Assembly (NCBI GenBank): GCA_036785375.1
Contig: JAWMAR010000061.1
Span: 9,238,001 to 9,302,000, forward strand
Length of the DNA: 64,000 bases
Source: Leucoraja ocellata
Lineage: Eukaryota
Direction of reading: 5' to 3'
This document shows positions 1 to 63,985 of this stretch, piece after piece (position 1 is the stretch's first letter; the number at the start of each line of letters is the position of its first letter). The notes under the pieces were generated by a model. The model did no database searches, was not told the DNA's origin, and saw only the letters and a program-made list of their open reading frames with translations. Made by a program: the position numbers and the translations under genes.

Positions 1-96
1 GAGAAGGAATGGGTGACGTTTCGGATCGAGACCCTTCAGACTGAAGAAACGTCACCCACCCAGAGATGCTGCCTGTCCTGCTGAGTTACTCCAGCT
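1..96. mobile_element. Penelope-like/hammerhead-motif short repeat, head-to-head palindromic copy (truncated by window start)
   Basis: gggtgacgtttcggatcgagacccttcag ... gaaacgtcaccc..agagatgctgcctgtcctgctgagttactccagc. Confidence 0.65.
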
Positions 97-673
97 TTAT
101 GTGGCTGTCTCTGGAAAGGGATATTGTGCTTGATTGGTCCTGTCCAACACCATAGCTGTAAAGGCTTTTGCACATCAGGCCAGACCAGAATTGTAGAAAC
201 AGGATTGTACCTAGTTTTGATGTCCTTCATTTGGGCAAACTAATGCCAGCCAGTGTGGGCTGTTTGGAGGAGGAGGAGGGTTCACTTTGGAGGTGTTTGT
301 GGTGCAAGGGATGGATGTTACAATGGAAGACGAGCAGTTGGCTCACTGCGCTGAGGTTTTGTTTCATTGCTTTCTGTGTGCTCTGGAGTTTGAATCAGTT
401 TTCAACAATCTGGTTTGTAAGCATGATGTCACTTTGTTCATACTGAGCTGTGTAATCGGTTGTGAATGGAGTGTCCACATGCTTGAGGCAAGTTTTCACG
501 ATGTCTGGCCTTGCCGCAGTCAGGCCACACGGGCTTGCATGGATATTTATGATGTTGGTAATGGTCCTGTCACAAGACTGGAACGCGAGTTTGAATCTAC
601 CCGTGAAGATTTAAATTGTTGAACTATTGCAATTAAGAAATTCCAATGGTAATTGGCGGCAGTTCCACATTGT

Positions 674-904
674 TCAATTCAATTCAACTTTATTGTCATT
701 GCGCAGATACAAGTATGGGTACAACGAAATGCAGTTTAGCGTCAGTCCGTAGTAATAGTGCAATATAGAAATAAAAATACAGAATAAGCAAACAATGTGG
801 ACGGAGAGACTGGAGAAATCTATCGGTGGGACTCCGACTTCAGCAATGTGATAGTGTTGTTGTACTAGTACGAGACCTGAGGCTCCTATACCGCCTCCCT
901 GATG
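674..904 (-). mobile_element. Rex1/Babar-type LINE 3' fragment
   Basis: Minus strand reads SGRRYRSLRS-like ORF end, then aatgacaataaa and a (ttgaa)n tail. Confidence 0.55.
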
Positions 905-1687
905 TACCGCTTCCTGATTTGTATACTTTGTTCTACATTGCTATTTCCAGGATCTGCAGTTTAACATTTACTGATTTGATATGGCCTATTTTACGTTGCA
1001 TTCCACAAGAAGTTATTTTACAACCAACCTGGATAGCATTTAAATTATAATGACTGGTTTAAAACAGTATTAAAATGTTAACTATTTGAAGCCCACATCA
1101 TGTCTGATGTTGCACGCAAAATATGATTGAGGTAATGACATTCAGACCTAGAACGGTCACCTGCTGGGGTTGTGTCATTGCTGGTCGTTTACCACATTCC
1201 AGATTATTTGAATTGAAGTTCCATAGATCTTGTGGTGAAAGTAGGGCTTGGTCCTGTGAAAGGTGAGGATATTGGCTGGGTAATTTAGTGTGGGAGGGAG
1301 ATTGGACCAGGAGGCCAAGGTTGTGCTCGGCTTCTCACCTGGTACAAACTCGGGTAGTGAATTGACAGCCAACCGATCTGTGAAACGTGTTGGAGGGACA
1401 AACATGGATTACTGAATGACATCAACTGTTTACACTCGAGCTGTTTCCACGGCAAGTACCATCACTCACCTAGCACCTAAGCCACTCTTGTTTAAAATCA
1501 GTAGCAAATGGAAGTTTCCGAAAAGACGAATCAATGGAACAGATGTTTAGAATTTTCTGATTATACATTCTTGCTCAAATTGAGCAGTTTTTTATCTCTG
1601 AATTTTAAAATTTTCCTATTTTTAACACTGTTCTATAAAAGAACTCTGTTGCTTTCAGAATTACCATCAATTGATTTGTTTTCTCAG

Positions 1688-1791
1688 AGTACGGTCTGCG
1701 ATTGGCAAGTCACATTTTTGTGAAAGAGATCTCTTCAGAAGGGCTGGCTGCCAAGGATGGTAACATCCATGAGGGAGATGTCGTATTGAAG
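1688..1791 (+). CDS. TJP1: TJP1 exon, PDZ2 ([35 protein letters not shown])
   Basis: ttctcag| acceptor, |gtcagt donor, 104 nt. Confidence 0.93.
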
Positions 1792-4700: not shown

Positions 4701-7700
4701 ACTAATAGAGAGATCAAAGGGCAAACTTAAAATGGTGGTACAGAGAGATGAAAGAGCCACTCTCCTAAATGTGCCTGATTTGGAAGACAGCATTCCTTCT
4801 GCAAATGCTTCTGAAAGAGATGGTAAGTGTATGAACCAATGGGATAGGATTGTGGTCCCATTTGTTTCTGGCTTTGGAATGTAAGTGATGTGTTGAGCAG
4901 AGGTTTAATATCTGATTGGTAAAGAGCAGTAATTTAATTTGGAGATATAGCACGGAAACAGGCCCATCGGCCCACTGAGTCCGCGCCGACCAGCGATCCC
5001 TGCATATCAACACTACCCTGCGCACACTGCAGACAATTTATTTTACATTGATAGCAAGCCAATTAACCTACAAACCTGTACGTCTTTGGAGTGTGGGAGG
5101 AAATCTAAGATCTCGGAGAAACCCACATATGTCATGGGGAGAGCGTACAAACAACATAGAGACAGCACCAGTGGTCAGGATCAAACCTGGATCTCTGGCG
5201 CTGTAAGGCAGCAACTCTACTGCTGTACCACCATTCGTCCTCAAAGGAAATGGAGTCAGTTTAAGTTATGAGCCAGTCTAGGATCAGCACAACAGGGTAA
5301 CTGGGTTCACTGAGAGAGATGAGCGGTTGCAGTGTGCAGCCTGTGATACTGCCCACACAATGCTGTCTGCAAACAACTAAAGCAATGGAGATTCGCTTTT
5401 ATTGCAATTTGAGTTGGTGTTAAGTAACAGCACATGAGCCTGTGAATGTTGTTGTTAGATATTTCAGAAATCCATTCGCTGGTATCTGATCATTCCAACC
5501 ATTCAAATGAGAGGCCTCGCTTGCGCAGTCGTTCCCGCTCGCCTGACAAGCAGTCAGATTGGTCTGACCACTCGCACCATTCTCCACAGCCCATCAGCAA
5601 TGGAAGGTAGACCACTGCCTTTTCTCTTTTGGGGGGGGGGGTTAATTGCATTGTTTGGGGGGGAGGTTAATTGTATTGTGGGGGGGTTCAATGTATTGTG
5701 TGGGGGGCTTAATTCATTGTATTGTGTGGAAGGTTGTACTGTACACTAGTTTTTTTGGGCTGTATAATTTTTAGATTTCAGAAAATCCAGCTTCTGCACT
5801 CTTGTCTTATTTCTACATAATTGAGTTCTATGATCTCTCATACATTAGATGTTGATCATTTTGATATTTTTGATCATTGACAATATAACTAGAAAAATTG
5901 TATATTTTGGTCAGTTTTCATTGCAGAATATGTTGAATGCCCCCTGTCTGTGTCTGTATTACCTAGTCAGGGATGGGTCATTGTAACTCTTTGCCATGCA
6001 TTAAGGGACTGGCCTGATGATCCTCTGCAAAAAGCAGTTGGAGGAACTCAGCAGGCCAGGCAGCAGCTGTGGAGCAAAACCAAGAGGGGTCCCAACCCAA
6101 AATGATACCTACCCCTTTCTCTTCACAGATGCTGCCTGACACATTGACTACCTCCAGTAGTTTTTTTTTTTTTTTTTGATCAAATGCAGCATCTGTACCC
6201 TCTTGTGTCTCCCGGTTTTCCTATCCTCATTGTCTAACTGGGTGCCACCTTTCCTGTAAATGGGCAAAAGAACATCTCACTTGGGTTTGGGATCTGCACA
6301 ATGATTGGTGGTAGAGCTGGCTCTTCAGTAATTGGGAAACATCGACTGAATTACAGGGCCCCAGATCATGGTGACGATTCTGCGAGGGAAATTGGTTCTT
6401 AATTTTAAAATCCAGGAGCTGAGTTTTGGTGTTACTGTCTGAGCTTGCTGTCAGTGAGGTCTCTGCAGATTGACACATCCCCTTTACATGTTGCCTCCCA
6501 TAGAATTTTCACTCACTAATGCATGACTGTGAAAGGTTAACTTGTATATCCAGTGCCTCAGTTTCCTGCCTTTGTTCAGTATGGGAGCTGTCAGGCTACA
6601 AGGTCTGTGCCTTAAGCATAGGAAGCACTCTATTTTTGGCTCAGTTGTGCAGGATGACATCAGTGGAGAAGAATAACTGAAACTCACTTGAGAGATTGAA
6701 GAATGTAGTTCTGCTGGTATTTCAGGACTCTGTAAGTTGGTGAATGCCGTTTTCTGTTAATTCTGTATCTAGGGTCGATTCAAGTGTATTTTGACAGTGA
6801 TACAATGTGAAACTGTGCACCTGTTGGTATTTTTGTGCCTGATAGTGAAGAGTGCAGTCTGACAATGACCAGATGATGCAACTGTTTTACCCAATGTCAA
6901 ACCATGAAGCCAGCAGAGGATGGTGACTGAGCTTCTACCTGTAAGAGCAGCAGTAATCCAGGAGTTGTTGCCTTGGTATTTACTGCATGTACTGTTAGTT
7001 CCCAACTAGCGCGTCTCTCTCATGAGCACAGCCATCGTCGTTTTCTCTTCCTGGCTCCCTTTTACAATTTATTGTGATTCCATCTGTTCAATTGTTATTT
7101 ATGGTTGATATGGAACCTTGTTTCTCTTTTCAGCTTCTCCTTCCAAAATGTGTAGTCTTTCTTATCGTTCTATAGCTGTACAGATTTTCAAACTAACTTT
7201 TTAGTATGTGAATTTCTGTTTAAATATGATTTTACTGCATTTCCCAATTTCTGAATTTCTTGCAATCTGGTTGGGATGAGCTCCTGTGCTGCTACCAACA
7301 TCACTAACACCGAGCAATAGGACATCTTGCCTGACCCTCTCCCCTGAATCACTGCCTGGTGATCAGAATCAGGAGCTGTGTTCGACTCTCTAGCTCAGGG
7401 ACACAATATTTCTGTCTTAAGGATGTTATGGCTTCTTTAAGAAGACATGTAAAGTTGCAGCTTTCTTTTAAAAATTAAAATCTTATTTACCTTTTTGAAA
7501 CTGGTGGCTGATTGGTTGGGCCAGGCTTGGAGTGCTCTGTGTAGTTCTGGTCGCTGCTTTATAGGATGGCTGGGATTGAGCTAAAGGGGGTTTAAGGATT
7601 CACAGGAATGTTGCCCAGACCAAAAGGCTTGATTAAGGAGAGATAAGATTGACTGAGGCAGTTTTCCCTGAAGCAAAGGAAGCTGAGGGGTGAGTTGTCG

Positions 7701-10700
7701 AGGTTTGTATAATTATGAGAGGCAGAGCCGGGGGTGGGGTGGGGGGAGGGGGTTGTGTTGCTGTCCTTTTCCCATGACAAGGGAGTCTAAAACCTGAGGG
7801 GCCAGATTGTAAAGGGACAAATATAAAATTGAAGGTAGACAAAAATGCTGGAGAAACTCAGCGGGTGCGGCAGCAACTGTGGAGCAAAGGAAATAGGCAA
7901 CGTTTCGGGCCAAAACCCTTCTTCAGACTGGTTCCTTCGCTCCATAGATGCTGCCTCACCCGCTGAGGTTCTTCAGCATTTTTGTCTACCTTTGATTTTC
8001 CAGCATCTGCAGTTCCTTAAACAAATATAACATTGATCTAGGGATCATATTTTCCACATAGGTAGAGATTTAAGACATTCACATTGGTACCTGGATAGGA
8101 AAGGTTTAAAGAAATATGAACTAAATGCAGATAGGTCTTGGTAAGGTAGGTGTCTCGGATAGCATGGAGAATGTGGGCCGAACAGCCTGTTTCCGTGCTG
8201 TACGCTGATAAAGTAAAGAGTTCCTCGGTTCCTCGGTTCATCTGTGTATTGGGTTTTCTGAGGGAACGGCTCCACCTTCTGGTCAGAAATATTACTGATC
8301 AACTTCTGGCAAAACACTCTTATTTGCAGGCAGCCTCTTTTATGCAGTATGTGCTTGCTGGCTTTGCAACACTTATGTCTCTTTTTAGGAACCACTGATT
8401 CATAAACACCAATTATTATGTTATGTTGTTACAATTGTTATGTTGACAAAACTAAACTAATCTGGAAAGTGGCACTATCTTTTGTTTCCCATTCTATTGA
8501 AGTAATGTTGTCCGAATGACATTAGGAACATCTAATCTTTAGCTTTCATTAGATGCTCTGTAATATGAACTATTTTGTGTTTGTTGTGGATTAATCCAAC
8601 TAATTGGCAAGGAATGAACTGCAGATGCTGGAAAGTAAGGTGGATGAGGTCAGAGAGGACTGTGGACTATCATATCTATGTCCACCCATTTGCCCATCTA
8701 CACAAATCCCATTTGGACCATACCTTCAATGCCTATTTAATAGTCTGTCTGATTGTCATAACGAGGCATCTTAATAGTATTTGATTCCATCATTCCCTCT
8801 GACATCAAACACTCTTTATAAAAAAATTAAACCCTTGGATCTCCTTTAACATTTCTCCCTCTCACTTAAACCTGCTTTTCTTTTTTTTCTGGTACCCTAC
8901 CATGGGACAATGAATTTAAGTATCTGTGTCTCTCATAATCTTACAAATTTCCATCGGGTCACTGCGTAGCCTCCTTTGCTCCAGGGAAAACAAGACCCAC
9001 CTCCCACCATAACAAGCCCTCGGCTGCAGGCAGCATCCTGGTGAATCTCCTCTGCACACCAGGCGACATCCTGGTAAATCTCCTCTGCACTCCATCCATC
9101 TTTCCTCAGTTGGAAGAAGGGTCCCAACCCAAAAGCCATCAATCTATTTGCTCAACAGATGCTGCCTGACCACTGAGTTCCTTCAGTGCATTGTGTTTTG
9201 CTCATGTCTCCCATCGTGTGACAACCAGAATTGCACACAAAACTCCCAATAGCGGCCTAAGTAGTTCAAGTAAAGTTGGGTGATTGGTTCCCAAGCCACA
9301 TTCTCTGCATCTATCTATGAAGGCAAGATGACATATGCTCCCTTCACCACCCTACCTACCTGTGTTGCCATTTTCAGGGAATGATGGACGGCCCCCAAGG
9401 TCTCCATTAATCAACGATCTTTAATGCCTGACCATTTACTGTCCGTGTTCTGTATATGTCTGACTTCCCAAAATGCATAATCTTAATAATAACCAAGTAG
9501 AAAGATCCTAGCCTCCATTCAGAAACAGCACCCTTCCACCACTTTCGGCTGCCTCCTTTCAAGCCAATCTTGGATACAATTTAGTTTAGTGTAGCGATAC
9601 AGTGTGGAAACACTTTGGTGCACTGAGTCCGTGTCGATCAACAATCACCCGTACACGAGTTATATCCTACGCATTAGGGACAATTTACGGAAGCCAATTA
9701 ACCTACAAACCTGCACGTCTTTGGAATGTGGGAGGAAACCGGAGCACCCAGAGAAAATCCACGCTGTCACAGGGAGAACATACAAACTCTAACAGACAGT
9801 GCCCATAGTCGGGATCGAACATTACTACTGTGCCGCCCAAATTAACCAGTTTGCCATGGAATCTATATGCTTGAATCTTCTAGACTAGTTTACAGGATTT
9901 TCCTTGCACCAATCCATGCTGATTCTCTATAATCAGTCCCTGCCTTTACAAATGAATATATATAGGCACGGTTCAGAAGGTTATTGGTTCTTCACTCACC
10001 ATCTTCCTTCTAGTGAAGGGGCACTCACTGTGCTGTTGCAGAGAAGTTGATGATTTAACCACAGCCATTAGGGACCGAGTGTACTTCCATAAGAGGCAGT
10101 ATGCAGCGTGAAAGAGCTCCTCACTGATACCGTAGGCAAATAGGTGTGGTATATTTTGTAGATTCACATTGCAACCATTATATATCGGTGAGTAGGGTTG
10201 CTGTATTTTGTTCTTTGTGCTTCACCCTCCGTAGTCTGCAATTTAAAACACATTTTGACATGATGAAAAGCCTTCAACATAAAATGTTATCTGTATCTCC
10301 CCACAGATGCTGCCTGATCCGAGTGTTTCAAGCATTTTGTTTCTTAATTTCTATAATCTGTAGTGTTTTGCTTTTCTGCAAGTATCTGGGGCCATTGAGG
10401 GAGGTGAATCAGATGGGAAAGGGCAGCTCCATGAAGAGGAGAATGGAGAGATAAAGTAAACCAGAGCTTCCTGAGGGGGAATTGTTGAATGGGAGAGAGA
10501 ACGGAATATCTGGATGAGATGTTAGTCACTGAGTCTGAAACGTCAGTGCGCAGGACTGATGTTTTTGACCAGTACTTGTAGGGCCTGGCTAAACATTAGT
10601 CTAAATTACAGTAGCAGCTATGTTTCAAGTGTTGCATTGCAAAGCATTTTAATGTGTGACTAATTTAATCATTGTGCCCATGGCAGAACAGTGTTGTGAA

Positions 10701-13700: not shown

Positions 13701-16700
13701 TTGTATTTGCAGTCTAGCCCGAACCTTTAATACAGCCGGGTCCTTTATATTCATCGTAAAAATATTTCCTATTCCAGTCTATCGACGTATTGTGGAATCT
13801 GATGTGGGTGATTCTTTCTACATCCGGACTCACTTTGACTATGAGAAGGAATCTCCCTACGGCCTGAGCTTTAACCGCGGTGAGGTGTTCCGTGTGGTGG
13901 ACACACTCTACAATGGGAAGCTAGGTTCCTGGCTCGCCATCCGAATCGGCAAAAACCACAAGGAGGTGGAAAGGGGTATCATCCCAAACAGAAACAGGTG
14001 TGTGAAGAACTTCCACTCAGTAGCACTTTATTATTTTGTGATAAGCTTTGTAGAATTTGGATAAATGATTGCTCAATCGAACACTGATTTTCCAGTCCTG
14101 TTGAAATGGTTAGACACGAGCCACTCTGAATTGAAAACATAACTGTTGCAAGATATATTTCCATCTGTTCTCCTGAAAACAATAGCCTGAATATTAGAAA
14201 TTTGCCTTAAGAAAATCTTAACTTTTAACTTAAGGAAAAAGTGCAGCATGATGTAGTTTCTTGACATGGTCACTGGTTGATGTTGAAATTTGTCTGTGGT
14301 TGTACTCAGAGCCGAGCAGTTATCCAGCGTGCAGTACACACTTCCAAAAACGGCCGGTGGCGATCGTGCTGACTTCTGGCGCTTCCGTGGACTTCGCAGC
14401 TCGAAGAGAAACCTGAGGAAAAGCAGGGAAGACCTTTCAGCTCAGCCAGTTCACACTAAGTTCCCAGCTTATGAGAGGGTCGTCCTTCGAGAAGGTATTG
14501 ACACCTTCAAAATGAGCCTTCATGCAAAGGAAAGTTGATGTTGTCTCTCTGCCCCGGCCTCGCATTCTGTCATCACATAGTGCTTGGAAAGATCGTCTGA
14601 AACTGCACATAATATACAGGTCATGCTCTTGGGAGCAGGGCATATATTCCCCTTCAGCATGTGGAACTGTCGCCACTGAGGCATTTACTTTATTGGATTA
14701 ACATGAGTCAGTGCCGAGCGAGGGAGTGGGAGCTGAGGGTGGTCTTGGTTCATAGTCCATGCCCAGTGTGGGAGCAGAGAGTGGTCTCAGTTCACAGTCC
14801 GTGCCTGGTGGGGACAGAGGGCGATCTAACCTGTGCAGAGGCAACTTTGTGAAGCCAGTGTGTGAAGATTGCTCGACATCGAACGTTCCTGTTCCTGTCT
14901 ATAGTTGGTCATTTTGTCAGTTGACACGGGGGGGGAGGGGAGGGGAGGGGGAGGGCGGCACTCTGCAGAAGGCTGATCTCATTGTTGTGAGGGGGGTTTC
15001 TATATTGTCCAATCACCATGGCCAGGCAGGAAGAGCTGGTGTGTGTCCCAGCAGTAACATGGCCAGGATGTTGACACTGGTACCCTGCTTGTCACTCAAC
15101 CAGGGACAGGACAAGGGTTCATGCACGGCCTGGATGCTGGCATTTGCACCCGGCTTGTCACTCAACGAGGGACAGGACAAGTTCATGTAATAATGCAAAT
15201 ATGTTATAAACGTGCAGAAACTACTACTAAAATTATTTATGTGAGTGCACTTGAAGGCCTGCCTACTGTGGAATTGATGAGATGCAGCACTCAGTGTTCT
15301 ACATAGTTCCTGATGTGTATCTGTGCATCTTTGGTTTAATTGTCATTAACTGCCCCAAGTCTTTTTGGTGTAAAGTCAATAATATTGGATGAGCCCCACA
15401 TTACCTGCTCCTGCCATCGCCTGTCTTCATCATTTGTGCTCAGGATTTGACCCACAGCATGAATTGTCCAAACGTGTCGTAACTGCTGATTTACTTTATG
15501 TTGATAGTAATTAATTTGTTTGTCTTCAAGCTGGGTTCCTGCGGCCAGTGGTCATCTTTGGATCCCTTGCTGACATTGCTCGGGAGAAGCTTGCCCGAGA
15601 GGAGCCAAACCTGTATGAAATTGCAAGTAAGTTTCAGCTGCCTCCACCTCCCACTCTGTTTCTGTGTCATGGCTGGGCAAGAGCACTGTCCAGGAGAAGC
15701 CACTGCCGTGACTCTGGATGTCATCTGATGCCACGGAGCAGTTCTCTTCCCAGGTGTCAGATGGCAGCAACAAAGTGAGAGCTCTGCAGCCCAGCCCACC
15801 ACATCCATGCCATCTTTTTGCCCATCTACACCACACTCTTTGCCTGTATTCTTGCTTTTGATGCCACAACCATGCCTCTTATAATCCTGTATACTTCTAT
15901 CAGGTTATCCCTCAGTCTACTTTGTTACAGTGGAAACAAGCCCAGCCTATCCATGTGTAGGAAAGAACTGCAGATGCTGGTTTAAATCAAAGGTAGATGC
16001 AATGCTGGAATAACTCAGCAGATCAGAGAGCATCTCTGGAGAACATGGATAGGTGAGGTTTTGAGTCGGGACTCTTCTTCTGTCCAGCCTGAAGAAAGGT
16101 CCTGGCCTGAACCGTAACCTATCCATGTTCTCCAGAGATGCTGCCCAAACCCGCTGAGTTACTCCAACACTTTGTTTTGTTTTTTTGTAAACCAGAATCG
16201 GCAGCTCCTTATTTCAACATTCTAAGAAACGTGGAAAATGTGAATTAGCAATGAGACAAAATGTTTGCTTTGCTTTAAATGTTGAGTGGCTGACGTGGTC
16301 TGTTATGTCGCAGGGAGCGAGCCCAGAGATGCCGGCACGGATCAGCACAGCTCGGGTATTATCCGGCTGCACACAATCAAACAAGTCATTGACAGGGTAA
16401 GATGCCTTTCTGACGTTGCTGATGGACCAATTTATGTTTGTCGAGTCTGAAGTGATCTCTGTATTTACAATTGCCTTTTTGCTGTTGTAGGATAAGCATG
16501 CAGTATTAGACATTACTCCAAATGCAGTGGATCGGTTGAATTATGCTCAGTGGTACCCAATTGTACTATTTCTAAACCCTGATTCTAAGCAAGGCGTGAA
16601 AACAATGCGACAAAGACTCTGTCCCGAGTCTCGAAAGAGTGCTCGCAAGCTGTTTGAGCGTGCCTTGAAACTACGGAAGAACAATCATCATCTGTTCACG

Positions 16701-45800: not shown

Positions 45801-48800
45801 ACACTGGTGCTGTCAATCTTTCACTAATCCATTCACTGGGCTCCAAGTGACATCACTGTTACAACAATTACCATCTGCTGATATTCCCAAAACACTCACC
45901 ATCTACAAAGTTGGGAAAGGAGGATGGTGTCTTCGTTTGCTGCAAGATAAACCAGATGTTGACAGCTGTCCTTACACACAGTAACATAGTAAACAGTAAA
46001 TAAATGTGTCTGATAGAATAACAAGCTTGATAAGGTGGAAGCAGGGGACGGACTTCTCCACACTGGGCTTTTGGAACTGACTTCCTCAACCAGCAGCATC
46101 TTTGAACCAGCCAGAGATGGATGGATATGTGACGCTGACCTTACTGAGTGGCAGAGCAGGANNNNNNNNNNNNNNNNNNNNNNNNNNNNNNNNNNNNNNN
46201 NNNNNNNNNNNNNNNNNNNNNNNNNNNNNNNNNNNNNNNNNNNNNNNNNNNNNNNNNNNNNNNNNNNNNNNNNNNNNNNNNNNNNNNNNNNNNNNNNNNN
46301 NNNNNNNNNNNNNNNNNNNNNNNNNNNNNNNNNNNNNNNNNNNNNNNNNNNNNNNNNNNNNNNNNNNNNNNNNNNNNNNNNNNCACTGCACCCTCACACA
46401 CACATACATACACACACGCACACATACACTGTACACACACACGCACACATACACTGTACACACCCACACACATACACACACATACACACACACTACGCGC
46501 ACACACACACACACTGCACCCCCACACTGCGCACACATACACACACACACTGCGCACACACACACTGCACACATACACTGTACACACACACACACACACA
46601 CTGCACCCCCACACTGCGCACACATACACACACACTGCGCACACACACACTGCACACATACACACACACACTGCGCACACACACACTGCACACATACACT
46701 GTACACACACACACACACACTGCACCCCCACACTGCGCACACATACACACACACACTGCGCACACACACACTGCACACATACACTGTACACACACACACA
46801 CACACTGCACCCCCACACTGCGCACACATACACACACACACTGCGCACACACACACTGCACACATACCCTGTACACACACACACACACACACTGCACCCC
46901 CACACTGCGCACACATACACACACACACTGCGCACACACACACTGCACACATACACTGTACACACACACACACACACCTACACCCACACACTGGTCTATC
47001 CTGATGGGACAATCAGAAGAAGAAGAAGGAAGATTTGCACTATCAGTGTCACAGTCGGAGATCAGATGGGAAGTGTGACAGAGGAAGATGCCACAACCCA
47101 GCAGCAGATGTGAGCTGGCCCTTCACTACATGCCAGTCCAGATGGTCAATGAGAACTTGATTTTTCTAGCAATGTTTCACCCAGGCGATGGTTCCTCAGG
47201 ATAATGCTCCAAAGTTATCGAACAAGAATTGTACTTGAATTTCTCTTCTCTTCATTACTGTTCTGAAGCTAATTGTACATCTACTGGTTTCTCCCACCAA
47301 ATTCTAGCCAGTTCATTAGTGAACTCGTGGTCTTTCTAGGCTGCTGCCTCAATGATGGGCACTGCATGGAATGGTAATGGTCACAACAAAAGCAACTAAA
47401 CTCACCTCACAAACATAGTTGTTGTTGACGGGGCCATTGAGGTCAGAACGTTGCTGTTTCCGTGGCTGCCCTGTGTCCTGTCAACAGGTCAAAACACTTC
47501 TTTACAACTGGGACCTGAGCTTCACCAGACTGCATCCAACTCGAACTGTGAATATGCATCCACCTGACTGTCTACCAAGCCTCGCTCTAGTTCTCCATCT
47601 GACAATGCATCCATCGTAACCTGCAGCTTTCTGTCACCGATGGTTTAAATGGTGTAGATACAGAATACAGCAGTGACTGGTCTCCCCCCAAACAGATACA
47701 TCACAGGTAGAAACAAGTAAAGCTCCCTCCAGCACTGCCCTAGTCCTTCCATTCCCGTCCTGACCTGGTCTGCTGCTCCTTTAACAACACAAGATCTAAA
47801 TGCTACGACTCCTTTCTCAACAGCGCTGTGGGAGTGTGGCAGCAGTTCACCGACTCCTGGATGTATTCATTCCCAACAATACTTTCCTGGACAAAATAGA
47901 TGTTTCTCCCCTCACACTGACTTAGCCTCCAGTAATCAACGGCCCAGTCTGACAGATGTGTCTTTGGAACTCCGCTGATGTAGCTCGTGGTGGAGTTATT
48001 ACACAACTCACAGTCACATTAGTAATGTATTCAAGAGAGAGTTAGATTTAGCTCTTAGGGGCTAATGGAGTCCCTAAGGGATATGGGGAGAAAGCAGGAA
48101 CGGGGTATTGATTTTGGATGATCAGACTGAATGGCGATGCTGGCTCGAAGGGCCGAATGGCCTGCTCCTGCACCTATTTTCTATGTTTCTATGACAGTCA
48201 CTGATGCCCTTGCTAATGCTCCAAGCTCAACGTTGGGGGAATATGGTAACTGGCAGCTGCCAGTTTTATCTGATGTCACAACAGAATAAGGAGGATTAGG
48301 GTTGAGAAGGGAGAACTCGGCTCTCCCTCTTCCCTCTGACTCCTCCTCTTCCTTTCTTCTTCCTGCACCCCCTCCCCCCCCCCCCCCCCCACCCTGCATC
48401 AGTCTAAAGAAGGGTTTCGGCCCGAAACGTCGCCTATTTCCTTCGCTCCATAAATGCTGCTGCACCCGCTGAGTTTCTCCAACATTTTTGTCTACCTGTG
48501 ATTTTCCAGCATCTGCAGTTCCTTCTTGAACAGTATAAGGAGCCTCGGTGAAACCACTCCTGAATAAACTCTGCAGTGTCCCCAGCTCCGCTGCCCCATG
48601 ACCAGTGGATGACCAAGGCTCCTGTCCCTGTACGGTGGGTCCCTTGCTGCAAGGACTGCACATGGTGGATCCATGCATTGTCTCCACAGTTAAACCTTCC
48701 CCATTTCCCTATTACCCAACAGAATCAGCTGGGGGAGCCAAAGGAAAAGTAATCTCTAACGAATGTTAAAATGTGAGCAGTTTCAGGAGTGGAGGAAAGA

Positions 48801-50275: not shown

Positions 50276-50344
50276 GTCGATGTGCCATTTCATATCCATG
50301 TAGATTCTAGACAAATTATCTAATCTTCCCCACAATACACCTCT

Positions 50345-50644: not shown

Positions 50645-52126
50645 TAAGGACAGTGCATTTCCTTAGAACTGCACTGGATTACTAACCCAGATTTGTTTAA
50701 AGATGTACATAAGGGATCACCTCTCCTCTGCATCTGTCCTCTGGCAGGAACTATAGTGAAAATGCTGTATTATATTTCAACTACAAGGTGATGAAACTCG
50801 CTGGCTGGTCACTATGGAAACAACCACAGCTTTGATCAGTCTATTGTGCATTCTAGCACAAAGACAACGCCATGAAGCTCTGCTGAGAATCATAACCACC
50901 ATTTTCAGATCGCATTTAATCTCTACCTCTGTGGGACAAATGCTTTACGCAGTTTTCAAATGTGAATTACTTGTGGTCGGAACCAGTCCCCAACACTTCT
51001 CTAGTCTCATTAACATGCACACACACAAGTGCACACACGCACGCACACACGTGCACACACCCACACACCGCGAACACACGTGGATACACACACACAGATG
51101 CACACAGACACTGCACACATAGACACACACAGACACTACACAGACACACACACAACAAATGATTTCCATACCAAAATATTGTTCCCTTTGCCTGTTGCCG
51201 AATGGCTGGGAGTCTGGGTCTGATGGCAGGGGATCAGGATCCTGGGAGGAGATGATTCAGCACTGAATCTCTGTCAGTCTCCACAGCAAACACTGAAAGC
51301 TGCAGCCAGGCCCCAATGGCAGCCCTGATAAATAATTCATGCTCGCTCCCTCGCTCGCAAACAAAGCTGATGACAAGCAGCTGCGACAAGCTCATCACCG
51401 CCGGTCTCTACCACAGCTCGGTTTTAACACTGGGTGATTGGGCACTTCACTGACGGGCTTGAAGCAGTGCCAACCCAGCAATACAATCAGCAGCCCACAA
51501 CGACAGGTCAAATATTCTCACCGCTTCTAGTTTCATTTCACATTTTCCCTTTGTCACAACAAGAAGCAGTATTGATTCCAATCTGAATAGAACATATGGA
51601 GCATAGACAAGGGTGGACATTGTACAAAACTGGCCGTACTGAAGAAACAGCGGCTCGTGAGTGGGCAAGTGGCAGGACTGATGGGGTAGTTGGTCTGCAT
51701 GAGTGGGATTAGAAATAGAGCTCATGGATGAGAACGATGTCGTGTGGAAGGTGAGAGTGGGCAGTCTGTCTCTTGTAACTGTGGCTTGTGTTCCATGCAG
51801 AGGTGGCATAAAGTGCATGCCTTTGTGACAAACATAGTGAGGGGTTTGAGAAGGAGGACATTAGGGACGGATTGTTCAAAAGCCAACGTTACGGTCATTG
51901 TGCTGTCAGCAGTGTCTGGAGATAATCATGATCCCATTGCCGGTCCGATCAGAGACGACTTTCGTTTCACGGGCTCCGGTCAGTCGAGGCCAAATATAAA
52001 ATTATGGCTGAAGTAGAAACTCACGTAATTCAGATTATTGATTACAAATATTAGTGCTATTTAGAGCTGTGCAGATTCTGGGGCCACCAGCTCCATGATT
52101 AGGCCTCAGAGCAGACGGAGACGGAG

Positions 52127-52299
52127 AAACATAGAAACATTGAAATTAGGTGCAGGAGTAGGCCATTCGGCCCTTCGAGCCTGCACTGCCATTAAATATG
52201 ATCATGGCTGATCATCCAACTCAGTATCCTGTACCTGCCTTCTCTCCATACCCCCTGACCCCTTTAGCCACAAGGGCCACATCTAACTCCCTCTTAAAT
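52127..52299 (-). mobile_element. CR1 LINE 3' end (young)
   Basis: Near-identical reverse complement of 2375-2549. Confidence 0.88.
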
Positions 52300-54239
52300 A
52301 CGACAAAGAAAAGGATACTTTATACTTTATTTTATTTATTGAAACATAACGTCCTGGCAATAAATTTGGAGAAGATGGGATGAGATGCTTCAGTGGGATT
52401 CTAGAAGAGATCGTAAGATGCTACCCATTTAAGTCAGAAATGACATTTTTTCTCTGTTGTGAGCGTTTTGGAAGCAGAGACTTTGAAACTGTTTAAGACA
52501 GAGGTAAATAGATGAATGATCAGCATGGGGAAGTAACCTTGAGTCTCCAAAAGGCCTCCTCTAGCTCCTAGTTCATATGTTCAAACATATGTTCATATCC
52601 TAACAGAGACAAATTAAACAACAGCTTTATGTCTGTCTTTGGGGAAGAAGATAGAAATCCCACCAGAAATTTACAGGTCTAGCAAGAATGAACTGATTAT
52701 AATGATGTAATTATAACTGAAATAATTATTAGTCAAAATGTAGTCAGATTTGATCAATTTCAGGAACCAAATATGCTACAGCCCAGAGCTTTGAAAGACC
52801 TGAGTGGAAGATCTAGTCCTCACCTCCCAAATTCAATGAATTCTGGAACATTTTTTTGAGCAGAGGGGCCCTTTTTATGAATCTAAAAAATACAAGGTCA
52901 TTATCCACTGTTGCACAAAATAGATCGTGTATTTTGAAATGGAAGGAAGAATAGGTTGTTTTGATGTTCAAATGAAACTAGGATTGTCTAGACACAAGTC
53001 AATGAAAGCCAATGTGCATTTGCAATAAGCCAATAAGGTGACAAATTATATTTTAGCCTTTATTGAATGATGATTGAATACAAGACCAAGGAAGTCTTAG
53101 TACAATTATATTGATCTCCTTGCTTAAGAAAGCTTGCACCTGCCATAGAAAGAGTTTGGCAAAGATTCATAAACTGGTTTCAACAATGACAGGTTTGATA
53201 CATAAGGACCGGTTGAGGAGGTGAAGCCTGTGTTCTCTAGAGCTTAGATGAAGGAGAGGTGATCTCAATAAATATACTAAATTGTTACAGGACCTGGCAG
53301 GATGAACACGGAGAATGTTTCCCTTGCTGAGGAGTCAGCAGAGTAGGACTGAGATGAAGAGAAACATTTTCACTCAGAAGGTGAAGGTTTTGAATTCTCC
53401 AGCCTGGAGGTTACATTGTTGAAATTCACAACAGAGATTAAGATCTGGAAGGAATCAAGGGATATGGGCTCACAGCAAGAAAACAGCACTGAGGTCAATA
53501 ATGATCTTGATGAACGGCAGAACAGGATTATAGAGGCAGATGGCCCACTGCGGCTGCTGGCCTGCTATGTACATGGATGAACGGGCTGTGGAAGGGAACA
53601 CTAGGAGGCTAATCTCCTCAATCTGTTTCTAGCTATCTTCTTGTTGTTATAATGTTGTGTGGTCCATGTCAACACTCCACAACCTCCTCCTCCATGTTCA
53701 TGCCAATTACACCACGCCTCCAATCCCTCTTAAAGCTAAGCTCCATAGACTCACCATCCATAGTCTATAGGATATTAAACCCAAACCTTTGGTACATTGT
53801 CCTTGTTTGCCATCATCCAATGTGAGTGTGGCCTACACTGCAAATCTTGAACTTTCTCCTTAGTCTTTCAATAATAACATGAGGCCATTTAGCCCCTCAA
53901 TTGGATTATGCTTGATCTAAATCTTCATAATTCACCTAAATGCTGAACAGGAACAGGCCTTTGGACCCACCGTGTCTAAGACAAAGATGATGCCAATTTA
54001 AACTGTACATCTGCCTAAACACAGCCGATATCCCTCAACCCCCGCCACATGCACTGACTACTTGCCTCTTAAACGTTGCCAGCATATCTGCTTCCACCAT
54101 GTCCCTGACAGGCTCTACCACTCTGTGTAATAAAATCCTGCCTCATAAATCTCTTTTAAACTTTCCCTCACTCAACTTAAAGCTATTCCCATTAGTATTT
54201 GACATTCCCACCCTGGGAAAAATACTGACTATCTAAAGA

Positions 54240-54547
54240 TAGGCATAAAGTGCTGGAGTAACTCAGCAGATCAGGCAACATCTCTGCAGAAAATTAATCG
54301 GTGATGGTTTGGGTCGGAACCCTTCTTCAGACGCTTTGATTTTTATTTTTTATTACAGTCTAACTATCTACCCTATTTGTAGGAAGGAACTGCAGATGCT
54401 GGTTTAAACCGAAGATACACACAAAAAGCTGGAGTAACTCAGCGGGACAGGCAGCATCTCTGGAAGGAAGGAATGGGTGAAGTTTCAGGTCGAGACCATT
54501 CAAGGTCACTTTTTCCTTCCTTCCAGAGATGCTGCCTGTCCCGCTGA
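54240..54547. mobile_element. Two adjacent Penelope-like/hammerhead-motif repeat copies
   Basis: gctggagtaactcagc..ggcagcatctctgg..gggtcggaacccttcttcagac; the second copy has an inverted arm. Confidence 0.65.
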
Positions 54548-55724
54548 ATGAACGACCCCATTTCACATTCCTTGATTGCCCACTGACTGTTCCCTTTCAG
54601 AAATCCATTGATCACCAGTGCCCAGTCTTTCCATGACAAAGATCACAGATATCTCCTCTAAATGAAGTCCCACTTTCTTCTGAACCCCTGCAGAGGAAGT
54701 ATTGTCCCTCCAACCTATCCAATTATGTTCCGAAGAGCCTCCCTTGTGCTACCAATATCTTTCATTTCACCAACGTCAGTTAGAACCATTTTGTGTTATT
54801 GTCCGTTGCGGTATTATTAAACAATAGGCCTCCCATTCTTATCTTCAGTCACTGCCTTTAAACTGCACAATGACCCAAACGACTAAAGCCTTCGTATTTA
54901 CAAAAACACAGAAATTCTTAAAGAATAATTTTTGAATCAACTTATTCCCCTAACATAATTCATAACATTCAAAATTGCCAGGCTGTAATAAGTTTCCTCA
55001 AAGTCCCCTTAAAAGGAGCAGCTGGGAAGAGTGCAGAGAAGACTTATGAGGATGTAGCCAGGACTCAGAGTGTATAAGAGTCTGATGGTTTTTGGGAAGA
55101 AGCTATTCTTAAACATGGTGGTCACGGTTTTCAGACGGTATCCCGAAGGTCGGAGTGTAATGAGAGTGTGACATTGTTTGAAGAAGAGTCTCAACCCAAA
55201 ACGTCACCTATTCCTTTTCTCCTGACCCGCTGAGTTACTCCAGCCTTTTGCGTTTGACATGGGTCTATGATGATATTCGCTGTTTTTTTGTTTCAGTTTA
55301 GTTCAGTTTATTGCCACGTGTACCGAGGTACAGTGAAAAGCCTTTGTTGCTTGCTATCCAGTCAGCTGAAAAACATCCATTCGATGGTGGGAAGAGCATC
55401 ACCCCACCAATCCAATCCATCCCCCACCTCTCCGCACTCTGTAACCTCGCCTCCACTTTAACCCTGAATGGACCTGACTCCAGGCTGAAACAAGGGTGGG
55501 GCAAGGCTTCATGGAGACTGCACCTTCTCACTGGTCTCTCCTGAAGATGCAGATATTGGCTGGGTTGAACAATGCTCCATTTCTAGATAGGGGCTTTGCT
55601 CTATAGAAGGTGAACAGGGGGTCAGTGAGATATGTAACCCGGTGACATCAGACTTTAGATAGCAACTGGGGACAGCACATGTTTGGGGTTGGCTACTTGG
55701 TGGTGAATCACATCTCACAAATGT

Positions 55725-57470: not shown

Positions 57471-59119
57471 GATCTCTCTGGGTAGTCTGATCTCCTTGTA
57501 ACTGGTGTTACCACATACAGACCAAAGATGCACGTTAGGCTCTGATCATTAGTGATTCTCTACTGGATTTCACCGTGAATAATTAAAAACATCCTATCAT
57601 GTACTGCATCCAGAATCACTTAACGTGGATTGTACACAGTTATCTGACCCTCTGTCAGTCACACACAGATTGCAACACCAACCAACTGAGCAACCTTCAG
57701 CACAATGACAAGACTTGTTACACCCCTCCTTTACTAGCTCGAATACGAACACTATTTCTCTTCTGTACGTTTGCATAATTTAATTCACTTCACAGCAGTC
57801 ACTGGGAACAGAGGTACTCTGGTTAAGTAATCACCACCACTGTTTATGAATGTAGCCATTATATCACAGAACAAGTCAGTATATCTATAATAACAAGGTA
57901 CATCTCTGAGGATAGACGCAAAAAGCTGGAATAACTCAGCGGGACAGGCAGCATCTCTGGAGAGAAGGAATGGGTGACGTTTCGGGTTGAGACCCAACAT
58001 ATCTGAGGTATAGTTACACCATGATACTGTACTAGTATGATTCTGTAACGGTGAGGTGAGCATACAAGTCTGTTACTCTGGTGTACATTATTGAAGTCTA
58101 TAACTGTACAATGCAGGTGGGTACAAGTGAGCAACTCTATGAAGTGAGATGCAGTTCAAGTAGAGCAGGTGTCAGTGTGCAACCCTGGAGTATAACACGT
58201 GAGAATGACCCAGCAGGATAAAGTTCAAGTTGGAACTGGCCTCTCACTGTGTGACCATGGAGTATAGTACAGATGGGGACAGATCTGTCACTGCATAACA
58301 TTGTATTACAGTTCAGGTGAGGATAGATGTGTTAAATACATTCTTGAGCTGCAATATTACTGTATGTCACTGGGATCAATTGCTGATGATTTTTCTTGAT
58401 CTTCCACCAAAACCAAAATAAAAATAGATATTTCCCCCCAACATAGGGTGATGGAATATGAGGGACCCAGCTCTGTTTTTCACCTGAACCTGCTATGCAG
58501 TAAAGAATTATTTAAAAGTTACAGACAGCACAGATGCTGCCCCAGATTCAAAGCAACAACGCTTTCCCTGCCACAAACTGGGAATGTTGAGCACTGCAAA
58601 GTTTTCCAGTCTGTTTGCAAATTATTCACTGTAAAGAAACCCGGCTGAGTTTTGCTGCTCACATCTCACTGTGTATTTGTTTACAGCAGATGGCTGGTTT
58701 GTCGCTGCCTCAGAGGTAACAAACTGCGAGAAGCACATTGCAAGGTTGGTGTTGGAACGGAGACACAGCACTGCCTGGTGTGGGCTCCCATTCCTGTCCC
58801 CGTTGCAGCAGAGACACCAAACCCACTCCAGATCACCTTATCATCATCAATGGGCCATTCTGGAAACCCTCTCAGCCTGAGTCCTTATCCATCCCGCAGC
58901 TGAAACATGGCCTTTCACTGCGTAACATTGGCATACAGTTCAGGTCAGTATCGACAGGTTCAATATCGTCGAGCTACAATAATTGGTCCGGCACTGGCTC
59001 TGTCACTGGCATCAATTGCTGATGATTTTTCTTGAGTTGAACTACTTACTCTTCCACCAAAACCAAGGTCCCTCTGAAGGTCCCTCACTCATAGGAGACC
59101 AATACAAGGCACGGATGAT

Positions 59120-59580
59120 TTCCTATTGTCATATGCTGAGAGAATGGAGCGGCTGGGCTTGTACACTCTGGAGTTTAGAAGGATGAGAGGGAATCCTATT
59201 GAAACATATAAGATTGTTAAGGGCTTGGACACGCTAGAGGCAGGAAACATATTCCCGATGTTGGGGGAGTCCAGAACCAGGGGCCACAGTTTAAGAATAA
59301 GGAGTAAGCCATTTAGAACGGAGACGAGGAAACACTTTTTCTCACAGAAAGTGGTGAGTCTGTGGAATTCTTTGCCTCAGAGGGCGGTGGAGGCGGGTTC
59401 TCTGGATGCTTTCAAGAGAGAGCTAGATAGGGCTCTTAAAAATAGCGGAGTCAGGGGATATGGGGAGAAGGCAGGAACAGGGTACTGATTGGGGATGATC
59501 AGCCATGATCACATTGAATGGCAGGGCTGGCTCAAAGGGCCGAATGGCCTACTCCTGCACCTATTGTCTATTGTCTATTC
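59120..59580 (+). mobile_element. CR1 LINE 3' end (young)
   Basis: [48 protein letters not shown]; (ctattgt)n tail. Confidence 0.9.
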
Positions 59581-60800
59581 ATCTCTGAATTGGACAGAAG
59601 TCACCAGCAGTAATTAGTGCAATAGAGTGTGAAGACAAAGAGTGCAGATGCTGGATTCTGGACCAAGGACCAGAATGCAGGTAGAACAGCTGCATCTGTG
59701 GAGGCCAAAGATGCAAGGTGATGTTTTGGCTGAAGACCCGGCATCAAGGCAGAGAGGGAAGGGGGTGGATTCCCATCATTTAGGATACTGGAGGATAGGG
59801 AATAAAGGCTGGGTAGATTTTAGCTCACCTGTCCACATAGTTTTCTTCTTCCTTTGTTCACCTCTCCCCATCGGCTGGTTCCACCTACCATGCATTTGCA
59901 CTGCTACATACTGCCAATGTTTCCTCATCCTGCTCCAAGAGTAACTTAGATAATTTGCAATTCGTAAGTGCAATACAACGCACCTCTAACTGTGACAAAC
60001 CAGCCATCAGGCCACAAACATTAGGAACATTCCTGGAGAGGAGATTTCTGCATCAGCTCTGTGGTTCCTGGCCTCCAGAATGTGCTTGCTGTTGGAGGCA
60101 GCTCCAGATCTCTTGGACATGCCTGTTATTCTGTCTGACTGTGCGATACTTTAATTAGAAAAAACTCAGCAAGATACATCCTTGTTAAAGCCTGGCACAG
60201 CATTTGTAACTCTATTTCGATTGATTGTTTCAACATGTCACTTTGGCCCTTATTGAGCTGAGCGATTCACTATCTGGAATCATTGCTGAGTCCACCTGCA
60301 CATACGCTCAATGCGATGCATGTATCTGCAAACCTGGCTCACACTGAAATCAACTCACGTGTGCGAGCAAAATGCCAAACATTCAACTGGTCATTATCAC
60401 AATGCAGTTTCCTGTGAGACTAAAGACTTGATCTAACATCTCATGTGAAAGAAGCGTCTGTCTGTGCACTGCTCATTTAATGCTGCACATCAGTGTCTGC
60501 TTGCACTTCTGCAGTTGCTGGAGTGGACTTGTGCATACTGACAGCCGGATTTCCCAAATTACAACAATGTTACCGTCATAGCATTAAACAGGCCCTTCGG
60601 CCCAACTTGCCCGTGCTGACCAAGATGCTCCATCTACACTAGACCTACCTGTCCACATCTGGTCTATATCCTCCAAACCTTTCCTATCCATGTACCTGTC
60701 CAAATGTAATCTAAATATTGTTATGGTGCCTACCTCAACTACTTCATCTGGCAGCTTGTTCCAAAAACCCACCACTCTGTTGTTTCTTAGGTTCCTATTA

Positions 60801-61465
60801 CAGTAAACCCTTGGTTTTACTGATTCTATATAACGGATTTTGGTTATAGCGGACTGACCCACTGACCTTCACTGCCAGATTGGGCTGGCCACGCCACTGG
60901 GCCGTGCTGCCCCTCCAGCCGCCACCCTCCCATCCCAGCTGACCATCAATGCCAGGCCGCTCCAGTTGCCGCCGACCCTTACCTGACCTGCTGAGTTACT
61001 CCAGTACTCTGTGAAACATCACCTATCCATGTTCTCCACAGATGCTGCCTGACCCACTGAGTTACTCCAGCACTCTGTGAAACATCACCTATCCATGTTC
61101 TCCACAGATGCTGCCTGACCCACTGAGTTACTCCAGCACTCTGTGAAACATCACCTATCCATGTTCTCCACAGATGCTGCCTGACCCACTGAGTTACTCC
61201 AGCACTCTGTGAAACATCACCTATCCATGTTCTCCACAGATGCTGCCTGACCCACTGAGTTACTCCAGCACTCTGTGAAACGTCACCTATCCATGTTCTC
61301 CACAGGTTCTGCCTGACCCGCTGAGTTACTCCAGCACTCTGTCCTATTGTGTATTAAGCAGCAGCTGTAGCCGTTTGTTTCTACTATTTATACAATGATA
61401 ATCCCTTACTGGGTTATAACAGTCACCACCTCCCCCCTATGGCCCATTATGTTGAGGGTCTCCTG
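60801..61465. mobile_element. Tc1/mariner (Tigger-like) MITE
   Basis: TA|cagtaaaccc ... gggtctcctg|TA imperfect TIRs with TA duplication, splitting CR1 sequence. Confidence 0.55.
60982..61341 (+). repeat. Tandem array of a 66-bp unit (about 5.5 copies) derived from the hammerhead-motif repeat arm
   Basis: acctatccat recurs at 61021, 61087, 61153, 61219, 61285. Confidence 0.95.
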
Positions 61466-62100
61466 TAATTATTTCCATGCTCACCTTAAACCTGCGTCTT
61501 CTAATTCTTTATTCCCCAACAATGGGTAAGCGACTGTGCATTCACCCTATCTCTTCCCCTCATGATCTTATACACCTTCATAACATTACCCCTTATCCTG
61601 CACTTCATGGAATAGAGTTCTAGCTTGCTCAACCCCTTGATATAACCCAGGACCTCAAATCTTCTCCGTATTCTTTCCATCTAAACGGCATCCTTCCTGT
61701 AGCAGGGTGAACAAAATACTGCAACTACAGCTTCACTATCATTTTGTACAACTGTAACATAACAGCCCAACTTCTATACGCTGACTGATGAAGGCCAATG
61801 TGACAATAGTTTCATTTACTACCTTATCCACCTGTGTTATCACTGTCAAGTAACTATGTACCTGCACTCCTCAATCCCTCTGCTCTACAGCAGCCCCCCA
61901 GATCCCTGCCATTCACTGTGAAGGACCTACCCTAGTTTGACCTAGAATGCAACACCCTGCACCTATCTGCATTAAACTCCATTCTTGTATTGAATTGTAT
62001 TGTAACCATTTCTCAGCCCTTTTACCCAATTGATCAAGATCTTGCTGTAATTTTTGATAACCATCTTCATTATCTACGATATCACTCCTTGATTGTCACC

Positions 62101-62382
62101 TTTGGAGATACAGCGTGGAAACAGGCCCTACAGCCGACCAAGTCCACATTGACTAGCGATCACCTTGTACACTAGCATCATCCTACACTAAGGACATTTA
62201 TAGATGCAATTTATCTACAAACCTGGAGGTTTTTGGAGTGTGGGAGGAAACCAGAGCACTCACAGAAAACCCACACTGTCATGGGGAGAACGTACAAACT
62301 CTATAAAGACAGCACCAAAGTCACGATCGAACCTGGGTCCCTGGCCGCTGTGAGGCAGCAACTCTACCGCTACACCACCGTG
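62101..62382 (-). mobile_element. V-SINE (HE1-like)
   Basis: Homologous to 4935-5240. Confidence 0.8.
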
Positions 62383-63844
62383 AAACATCTGTAAGTTTAC
62401 TATTCGTACCTTGTGCATTCTCATCCAAATGGTTTGTAAAAAGTCACAAAGCCGATTCCTGAAGCACACCACTGGCCTCCAGTCTGAAAAACAATCTTCC
62501 ACCATCACCCTCTGTTTCCTTCCAATTCTCTAACCAATCGACTCGCTCTTCATTGATCCCATGCGATCTAACCTTCCAGAGCAGCCTACCATGTGGAACC
62601 TTAGCAAATAACACTTCTTCTGTCCAGAGTACTTCGGGTTGGCTCGGGGTTGTGAAGGACACTCTTTAGAAACTGCCCAGAAATTGGCGTCTCATCCAGG
62701 CACATTTCCCCTACACGATCCCTTCACACCAAACCCTATCTCCCCGGGACGGCCAGCCCGACCTCCGCGGGGTGGAGCCCCAGTGATGGGAGTGAGGGAG
62801 GTTGGTACCCTGAGCCCACCCATCCCAGACCAGAGACACACACAAAGCTGGAGTAACTCAGCGGGACAGGCAGCATCCTTGACCAGATCACACACTGAGC
62901 ACTTTCTGAAGATGCAGAACCACGCCACTCGTCTGTAAACACCAACACGCGATTTCATAATATCCTCGTTCACAAAAGCCTCACAATTTCGAGCAAGGTC
63001 CTGTTGGTAAACACGACCCCCGGCCCCCCACCCACCCCCTCATCACACTACCAGTGGCCGCGCTGTACAGCGCATTCAGGGGGTGCAGTCTGCATCGGAT
63101 TCATTGCACCGAGCGCTTACAGACTGCAGCTCTGCAACAGATTGATGCACCGATTCATTGATTCCACCGAGCAATGATCGCACCAGTTTGTTTGCACCGA
63201 CCCGGACTCGGTACCGGATTCGTTGCTTGCATTGAATTAATTGTTTGCACCGAATGCATTGATTCCACCGTGTGCCTGCCTGGTGCACCGAGGTATCTCC
63301 GGTTGCACCAGCAGCAGTTCGCTATCCGGGTGCAGGAAGACCTCGGGCACCAGGCACAACCGAGTGGGTAGCTTATACTGGGCATCGCTGCGGGCATTGC
63401 CCACCCGATCCCACCTTACCTGTGTGGCCGCCTCCCGCTCACTTCCTTTGTGTTCCCTCCCGACTCACCAGTGCATGGAGCCCCCTACCCTGGATAGGGC
63501 ATACACATCGATACCCGGCAATCTGAATGCAGCAGTCACGTTACATATTCAGATTCCGGGGTGCCCCATACAAGGCGTGATATCAGCATTACCACCCACG
63601 ATCCTGAATGGTAAATAATACGCCTGGAGCCCAGGTTGGTGCATGGTTTATCATCAGAGTGGGCGCAATTGGGCTTTGCGTTTTAGTGTCGAGTGGGCAG
63701 CTCTGCTGAAGGAGCTTGCGAGCCGTTAGCATTGACGCCTCCCACCCGCGGAATGGGATTTGCGGAGATTTATTGCAACAAAAGGGTACAGGACACTGGT
63801 GGGACTAGTGCCTGTCATGGGGCAAGTCAAAATCGAAGGATAAA

Positions 63845-63985
63845 TAGACACAAAGTGCTGGAATAAGTCAGAGGGTCAGGCAACATCTCTGGGGAACATG
63901 GACACAAAATGCTGCAGTAACTCAGCGGGACAGGCAGCATCTCTGGAGAGAAGGAATGGGTGACAATGCCGAGACCCTTCTTCGG
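63845..63985 (-). mobile_element. Penelope-like/hammerhead-motif repeat with tandem partial duplication
   Basis: gacacaaagtgctgga...ctctggggaacatg then gacacaaaatgctgcagtaactcagcgggacagg...gagacccttcttc. Confidence 0.6.

Follow-up and report, generated by a model that had tools for sequence, protein, structure and literature searches.

A very abundant repeat in the skate Leucoraja ocellata is likely the pLTR end of a Penelope-like element, with a minimal hammerhead broken in nearly all copies of one genomic window

Minimal hammerhead ribozymes (min-HHRs) were defined in the pseudo-long terminal repeats (pLTRs) of metazoan Penelope-like elements (PLEs) by Cervera and De la Pena in 2014 (PMC4209133), with a consensus in which CUGANGAH is followed by a stem II based on a G-C pair and then by GAAAN, a palindrome, and NUH, helix I being short. 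Most of these motifs occur singly at dispersed sites and are associated with truncated PLEs, and some form opposite-strand pairs; monomers show no cleavage and dimers show low cleavage, and coelacanth and Xenopus are reported to contain 4,000 to 9,000 motifs, a count confined to intact ones. A short repeat headed by such a motif recurs through a 64,000-nucleotide (nt) stretch of the genome of the skate Leucoraja ocellata (assembly GCA_036785375.1, contig JAWMAR010000061.1, positions 9,238,001 to 9,302,000 of the forward strand), hereafter the window. This repeat is likely the pLTR end of a PLE, probably of Neptune type, that has been mass-copied as short pieces and whose hammerhead is broken in almost every copy here. 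It likely consists of short pLTR copies of an autonomous PLE and not of a separate retrozyme or a miniature inverted-repeat transposable element (MITE).

The copies left behind by PLEs have a recognizable anatomy: they are 5' truncated, occur as partial tandems or with an inverted truncated copy, and have an optional tail of 30 to 40 bp and target duplications of 8 to 10 bp (PMC8557442, Craig 2021; PMC3846280, Arkhipova 2013). The tail lies between two internal start sites of reverse transcription, and the PLE protein of an anole cuts and extends both strands in vitro, with uncleaved RNA as the main template (PMC11167929, Frangieh 2024).

A profile built from the copies in the window recovers 33 fragments at 21 loci that together cover 2,838 bp (4.5% of the window); it has 0 matches at E <= 0.01 in the reversed window. 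All 19 copy positions listed in an earlier note on this DNA fall within the 21 profile loci, and the two loci beyond that list lie at ~10.3 kb and 59.6 to 59.7 kb. Read in the sense of the hammerhead, the element has the hammerhead motif as its 5' head and a body of ~65 nt behind it; a T-rich linker leads from the body to a tail of ~35 nt that not all copies have, and copies are 95 to 130 nt long. The earlier note had seen the repeat but had overlooked its head-to-head pairs, its target duplications, and its tail. The density in the window is 331 loci per Mb. In public contigs, which supplied depth and loose ends and come from three runs with three organism labels, the summed depth over the element body is 6 x 10^5 to 1.1 x 10^6 times that of unique flanks, a ratio that is not a true copy number; assuming a genome of a few Gb, density and depth would point to the same order of magnitude. 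No description of this repeat family was found in the literature on this group, Dfam and Repbase lying outside that search, and exact pattern scans of viral, metagenome, and prokaryote collections gave no match. An open frame runs through body and tail in two subfamilies; it has no start codon and was not taken as coding.

In the alignment, read 5' to 3', the head begins with one strand of a 2- to 3-bp helix I and with CUGAAGA, to which an additional A is appended. Stem II (4 bp, closed by a 4-nt loop) comes next, then GAAA and CGUC with its palindromic ACGU and GUC, and the partner strand of helix I completes the motif. This consensus fits the PLE min-HHRs of Figure S3 in PMC4209133 position for position, sharing the extra base after A9, the G-C base pair of stem II, the palindromic C-G without a loop 3, the NUH, and the short helix I, and it bears out the identification of the motif as a minimal type I hammerhead of the PLE kind. 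As with the published motifs, most window copies stand alone and some are paired on opposite strands. The window consensus differs in its short stem II, and no cartilaginous fish is among the rows of that figure compared here. Depth and density suggest far more copies of the window family than the 4,000 to 9,000 reported there, which are intact motifs only.

The family consensus does contain the motif, but nearly all window copies have it in broken form. A 28-nt core pattern occurs in 6 places at <=3 mismatches, never exactly (0 in 100 shuffles), and a structure descriptor finds two complete motifs, with C3 at 7926 and 41501, as opposed to 0 in 100 Markov controls. These two copies, both on the minus strand, are the only ones of the 19 aligned that retain CUGANGA, GAAA, NUH, and a full stem II (17 have a broken core), and the same features together with the extra base after A9 are present in the alignment consensus and in these two. 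The first has GUU at its cleavage site, and the second has AUC and a broken helix III palindrome. No more than 13 of the 33 fragments extend as far as the beginning of the core. The catalytic layout described in the earlier note is therefore present in the family consensus but was overstated for individual copies. The ACGT palindrome survives in 7 of 19 aligned rows and the G10.1-C11.1 pair of stem II in 12 of the 17 rows having letters there.

A second subfamily, characterized by GGGTTTCGGCCC, exists as the earlier note had it, U-G replacing U-A in stem II in 5 of 19 rows. Stem II cells pair in 84.9% of cases, and the covariation score of these 19 decayed copies was reached by 130 of 500 shuffles. 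The Rfam scan suggested for recognizing the hammerhead gave no hammerhead match at E <= 5, only hairpin matches below threshold, and folding of the monomer formed no hammerhead (z from -1.0 to +1.2), active folding not being expected of a monomer. Because 17 of 19 cores are broken, this family gives no sign of a host function. Stem II, loop, and GAAAC of the GGGTTTCGGCCC subfamily form a natural inverted repeat, and at 48414 an inverted arm is joined within this stem II in 87 contigs of run X4. The inverted repeat may favor inverted junctions at this spot and may also permit an inactive alternative fold.

Target duplications with at least 10 matching bases flank 8 of 20 testable loci as opposed to 1 of 115 random pairings (boundary-anchored search, used in place of a looser first search). 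They are 11 to 16 bp long, and each differs in sequence. Inverted pairs occur at 6 of 21 loci, all 6 head to head, and direct tandems occur at 2 of 21. The pair at 7833 to 8020 lies in a 16-bp duplication (7817 to 7832 and 8021 to 8036, 15 of 16 bases matching; locus 7817..8036), its minus arm having the hammerhead and no tail and its plus arm the tail and no hammerhead. Each arm holds sequence that the other lacks, and therefore neither is a fold-back copy of the other. Arm identity ranges from 72 to 93% versus a median of 80% between loci; two pairs look independent (72 to 73%), three are closer than average (89 to 93%), and one overlaps too little, such that arm identities are mixed evidence on the independent origin of arms.

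The 3' ends of the fragments fall into two zones of the model, with 20 of 33 at positions 90 to 103, 11 at 120 to 133, and none at 104 to 119; one of the remaining two is cut by the window edge and the other is internal. In public contigs, ~480 to 535 loose ends with AT-rich and unrelated flanks lie at 48497, and depth drops from millions to ~100 to 250, near single-copy, after 48540. Window and contigs thus place two 3' end zones ~35 nt apart, corresponding to the optional 30- to 40-bp tail of PLEs. None of the joints listed in the public contigs is an empty-site joint. At the other end, 13 of 33 fragments begin within 4 nt of the core, a duplication or inverted junction pins the 5' end near the core at about five loci, and three duplication-bearing copies reach 27 to 106 nt further 5'. 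The cleavage site (model positions 33 to 36) is the start or end of 0 of 33 fragments; 27 to 29 span it, two alignments being uncertain, and three begin 6 to 10 nt past it. As no fragment is bounded by the cleavage site, the templates were uncleaved or re-ligated, and the earlier proposal of a family defined by self-cleavage is left unsupported.

With endonuclease-containing PLEs (Penelope/Poseidon and Neptune; PMC8557442, PMC3846280, PMC11167929), the family has in common 5' truncation, partial tandems, an inverted 5'-truncated copy, the tail, variable duplications, AT-rich flanks, and an uncleaved RNA template, which is inferred here. Unlike in these elements, the parent open reading frame (ORF) is not seen for the window family, and the placement near Neptune comes from the endonuclease end and not from the reverse transcriptase (RT).

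This endonuclease end was reached through protein records, all of which are spurious ORFs from public contigs. A translated window copy (P0001) as query retrieved two of six candidates, P0003 among them; P0003 as query retrieved five more records, and further homolog searches added only P0008. P0004, from an ENA contig, contains a segment homologous to P0003 (73%, E 7e-16), followed by a pyrimidine-leaning spacer of ~62 codons (~190 nt) and then by the element, in which 25 residues are identical to the translation of the copy at 57.9 kb. In a shifted frame, the P0003 segment admits 12 of 13 positions of the Neptune endonuclease C-terminal motif, a score reached by 0 of 1,500 shuffles, and the P0004 segment admits 11 of 13, reached by 48 of 1,500. 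The motif was taken from the alignment in Figure S2 of Craig et al. (PMC8557442 supplement), and the inferred endonuclease end lines up in register with Neptune rows. At face value, P0004 would represent an endonuclease end, a ~190-nt 3' untranslated region, and a pLTR, and P0003 a partial tandem in which a truncated second unit comes after a tailed pLTR. The anatomy of the insertions and this indirect endonuclease link support the connection to Penelope and Neptune that the earlier note had drawn. Pfam returned nothing useful on P0002 to P0007, and an Atlas search gave no usable match. A scan of viral contigs with P0003 returned L001 (37% over 43 amino acids [aa]), a weak match taken as chance.

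Several observations weigh against a pLTR origin. At 12 of 20 testable loci there is no duplication at the threshold used, the seeds and the poor conservation of the T-rich linker contribute to the bimodality of 3' ends in the window, and a single array supplies five of the 20 short 3' ends. The extra 5' part of the copy at 48.3 kb is without repeat-level depth in the public contigs, where it is partly masked. No PLE ORF was seen directly: there is no Pfam match to GIY-YIG in the 150 longest of the 435 window ORFs (>=55 aa), and a regular expression for the RT and GIY-YIG cores has no match in the six frames of the window. The frames behind the endonuclease link were back-inferred from two spurious ORFs. 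Two further records that contain part of the segment, P0007 and P0006, scored no better than shuffles (390 of 1,500 and 1,231 of 1,500, respectively). Moreover, the motif was fixed after the shifted frames had been seen; the endonuclease match is therefore supportive and not proof.

If the repeat is a pLTR end, its copies could arise in the following way. The RT-GIY-YIG protein would nick both target strands with a stagger, yielding two 3' ends, and reverse transcription would prime on uncleaved element RNA at one or the other of two internal sites separated by ~35 nt. Synthesis of complementary DNA (cDNA) would then pass back through the hammerhead, usually stopping at or near its 5' edge. 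Priming of one 3' end would produce a single copy, and priming of both nicked strands would produce a minus-then-plus head-to-head pair between direct duplications, as at 7817 to 8036. Any activity of the ribozyme would require a dimer or the help of protein in the parent transcript, and genomic copies would decay neutrally after insertion.

The 5' ends may accumulate near the core because the RT pauses at a pyrimidine tract, because the RNA starts there, or because a splice junction lies there. The longest copy contains a pyrimidine/poly-C tract (48323 to 48403) whose final CAG lies one base upstream of the hammerhead core. This tract resembles a splice acceptor or a start site, in the manner of the Penelope intron of Drosophila virilis, which ends at nt 491 with C3 at nt 496. 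A more specific version of the pLTR reading, which we put forward tentatively and consider somewhat improbable, takes the short copies as run-off ("strong-stop-like") cDNAs that extend from the two tail sites in the transcript's first pLTR to the 5' end of the RNA, where the CAGT edge of helix I would mark either a start site or the junction of a spliced exon, with head-to-head pairs resulting from a protein dimer that primes both nicked strands at once. If this run-off version is true, the genome would contain on the order of 10^5 to 10^6 naturally recorded intermediates of PLE integration, and the inverted structure of PLEs, so far unexplained, could be put to a direct test by counting.

The family might instead be a distinct non-autonomous element, SINE- or retrozyme-like (SINE, short interspersed nuclear element), that derives from a PLE pLTR and whose own short master copies are transcribed and mobilized in trans, as the earlier note had proposed. 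The tight clustering of 5' ends within 4 nt of the core in 13 of 33 fragments, with about five loci pinned there, is in keeping with this proposal, as is a summed contig depth of ~6 x 10^5 to 1 x 10^6 times single-copy, which is not a true copy number. Animal retrozymes have been proposed to derive from pLTRs (bioRxiv 10.64898/2026.07.22.740005), pLTRs can act in trans (PMC3846280), and the family resembles animal retrozymes in being non-coding and having a type I hammerhead. However, retrozymes that lack long terminal repeats are tandem repeats of whole units, mostly of 150 to 450 bp, with circular RNAs and mostly canonical hammerheads (PMC7229834), whereas the window copies are dispersed and their motif is minimal. 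No tandem array of whole hammerhead units occurs in the window, the sole array (60980 to 61372) being without the CUGANGA half. Furthermore, the three duplication-bearing copies extend 27 to 106 nt further 5', and P0004 continues into an endonuclease-like segment. With no ends at the cleavage site and no tandem repetition of the hammerhead, a distinct retrozyme-like element is unsupported, and we regard it as unlikely.

Two further alternatives are far less probable. Six loci form long imperfect inverted repeats, and one matches a microRNA-like hairpin in Rfam below threshold, as might be expected if the family were a DNA MITE and the palindromic loci its terminal inverted repeats. But 15 of 21 loci lack the inverted-pair arrangement, the junction differs in each pair, the arms are unequal and 72 to 93% alike, and there are neither fixed terminal inverted repeats nor a short fixed duplication. 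Because most loci are single-armed, junctions differ, and the duplications are long and variable (11 to 16 bp), a MITE is the least probable of the alternatives, an outcome that the earlier note had anticipated. Only marginally more probable is a head that resembles a hammerhead by chance on an ordinary end of a SINE or long interspersed nuclear element (LINE), a possibility with which the covariation not exceeding shuffles, the lack of an Rfam hammerhead match, and the monomer folding without a hammerhead are all compatible. Yet the descriptor had no match in 100 Markov controls, the 2014 consensus features beyond the core (the extra base after A9, G10.1-C11.1, and the palindromic helix III) are present, active folding is not expected of the monomer (PMC4209133), and ARAGORN found no tRNA gene in the window.

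Both the motif and the class of element that hosts it were described in 2014, and the catch of the earlier note is right and not new in kind. The value of the pLTR family lies in its great abundance, which offers a large natural sample on PLE integration, including the use of two start sites and the priming of both strands, and a sample for asking whether PLE hammerheads matter.

Apart from the pair at 7817..8036, the head-to-head pairs lie at 2..109 (minus arm 2 to 42, plus arm 46 to 109), which is cut by the window start and has deletions in both cores; at 6029..6197, which is decayed and has a tail in its plus arm; at 15956..16214, with head and tail in both arms and an arm identity of only 73%; at 25263..25484; and at 54378..54548, whose minus arm, with tail, is the source of query P0001. 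The locus at 25263..25484 comprises a pair at 25305 to 25471 and a 14-bp duplication (25263 to 25276 and 25471 to 25484). The 14-mer occurs once more, in inverted orientation and with a few right-flank bases, at the outer end of the left arm (25292 to 25305), as if nascent DNA had been re-copied or target DNA captured during integration.

Among single copies on the plus strand, that at 9108..9203 has a mutated core, that at 17574..17657 is truncated in stem II, and that at 55176..55258 has an internal deletion; 10296..10353, outside the list of the earlier note, is a short fragment of body only. The copy at 19263 to 19357, mutated at G5 of the core, lies in a 15-bp duplication (14 of 15 matching; locus 19251..19371) that fixes the 5' end of the copy at the helix I edge. 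The longest copy (48280..48542, plus strand) has a 14-bp duplication (48280 to 48293 and 48529 to 48542) and ~106 nt of extra 5' sequence, with the head at 48404 to 48433 followed by the body and by the tail to ~48530.

The complete core with C3 at 7926 occupies 7894..7929 on the minus strand, antisense to the plus-strand host gene. The other minus-strand copies are at 25042..25143 (internal deletion, tail present), 33027..33134 (truncated in stem II, 12-bp duplication with 11 of 12 matching), 41409..41504 (complete core with C3 at 41501), 54234..54332 (GAAA mutated, 11-bp duplication with 10 of 11 matching, 27 nt past the head), 57900..58008 (beginning at stem II, 12-bp duplication with 11 of 12 matching), 59642..59739 (diverged, with tail, outside the earlier list), and 62832..62881 (body only). 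Direct tandems comprise a two-copy partial tandem at 63842..63985 (minus strand) and the array at 60980..61372 (plus strand), composed of 66-bp units from GAAAC onward. This array is young, its units being 96 to 98% alike, and is derived from the element body.

Exons coding for PDZ, SH3, ZU5, and PID domains (Pfam) mark two host genes arranged tail to tail, and copies of the hammerhead repeat lie in introns of both, on both strands. The plus-strand gene (PDZ, SH3, and ZU5 exons, ~1600 to 32100) is presumably tjp1/ZO-1-like, and the minus-strand gene (PID and PDZ exons, ~41550 to 44120) we take to be apba/Mint-like. The copy at 41409..41504 is sense-oriented in an intron, ~100 nt beyond a PDZ-coding exon. 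The sole RVT_1 match in the window (20220 to 20501; Pfam, 150 longest ORFs) is unrelated to the hammerhead family and presumably stems from a decayed CR1-type LINE.

Other repeats are also present. A second very abundant repeat (2096 to 2549, 28720 to 28877, 48027 to 48193, 52127 to 52300, and 59127 to 59578), whose public-contig depth at 48121 to 48204 exceeds that of the hammerhead family, probably represents LINE 3' ends. A third interspersed family of ~290 bp (4933 to 5232, 9585 to 9820, 17019 to 17314, 18413 to 18702, and 62098 to 62379) is probably a SINE. Two N gaps span 44185 to 44589 and 46162 to 46383, and minisatellites, including GC-rich 29-bp, CA-type, and 37-bp repeats, occupy 40150 to 41030, 44000 to 44185, 46383 to 47050, and 50080 to 50690.

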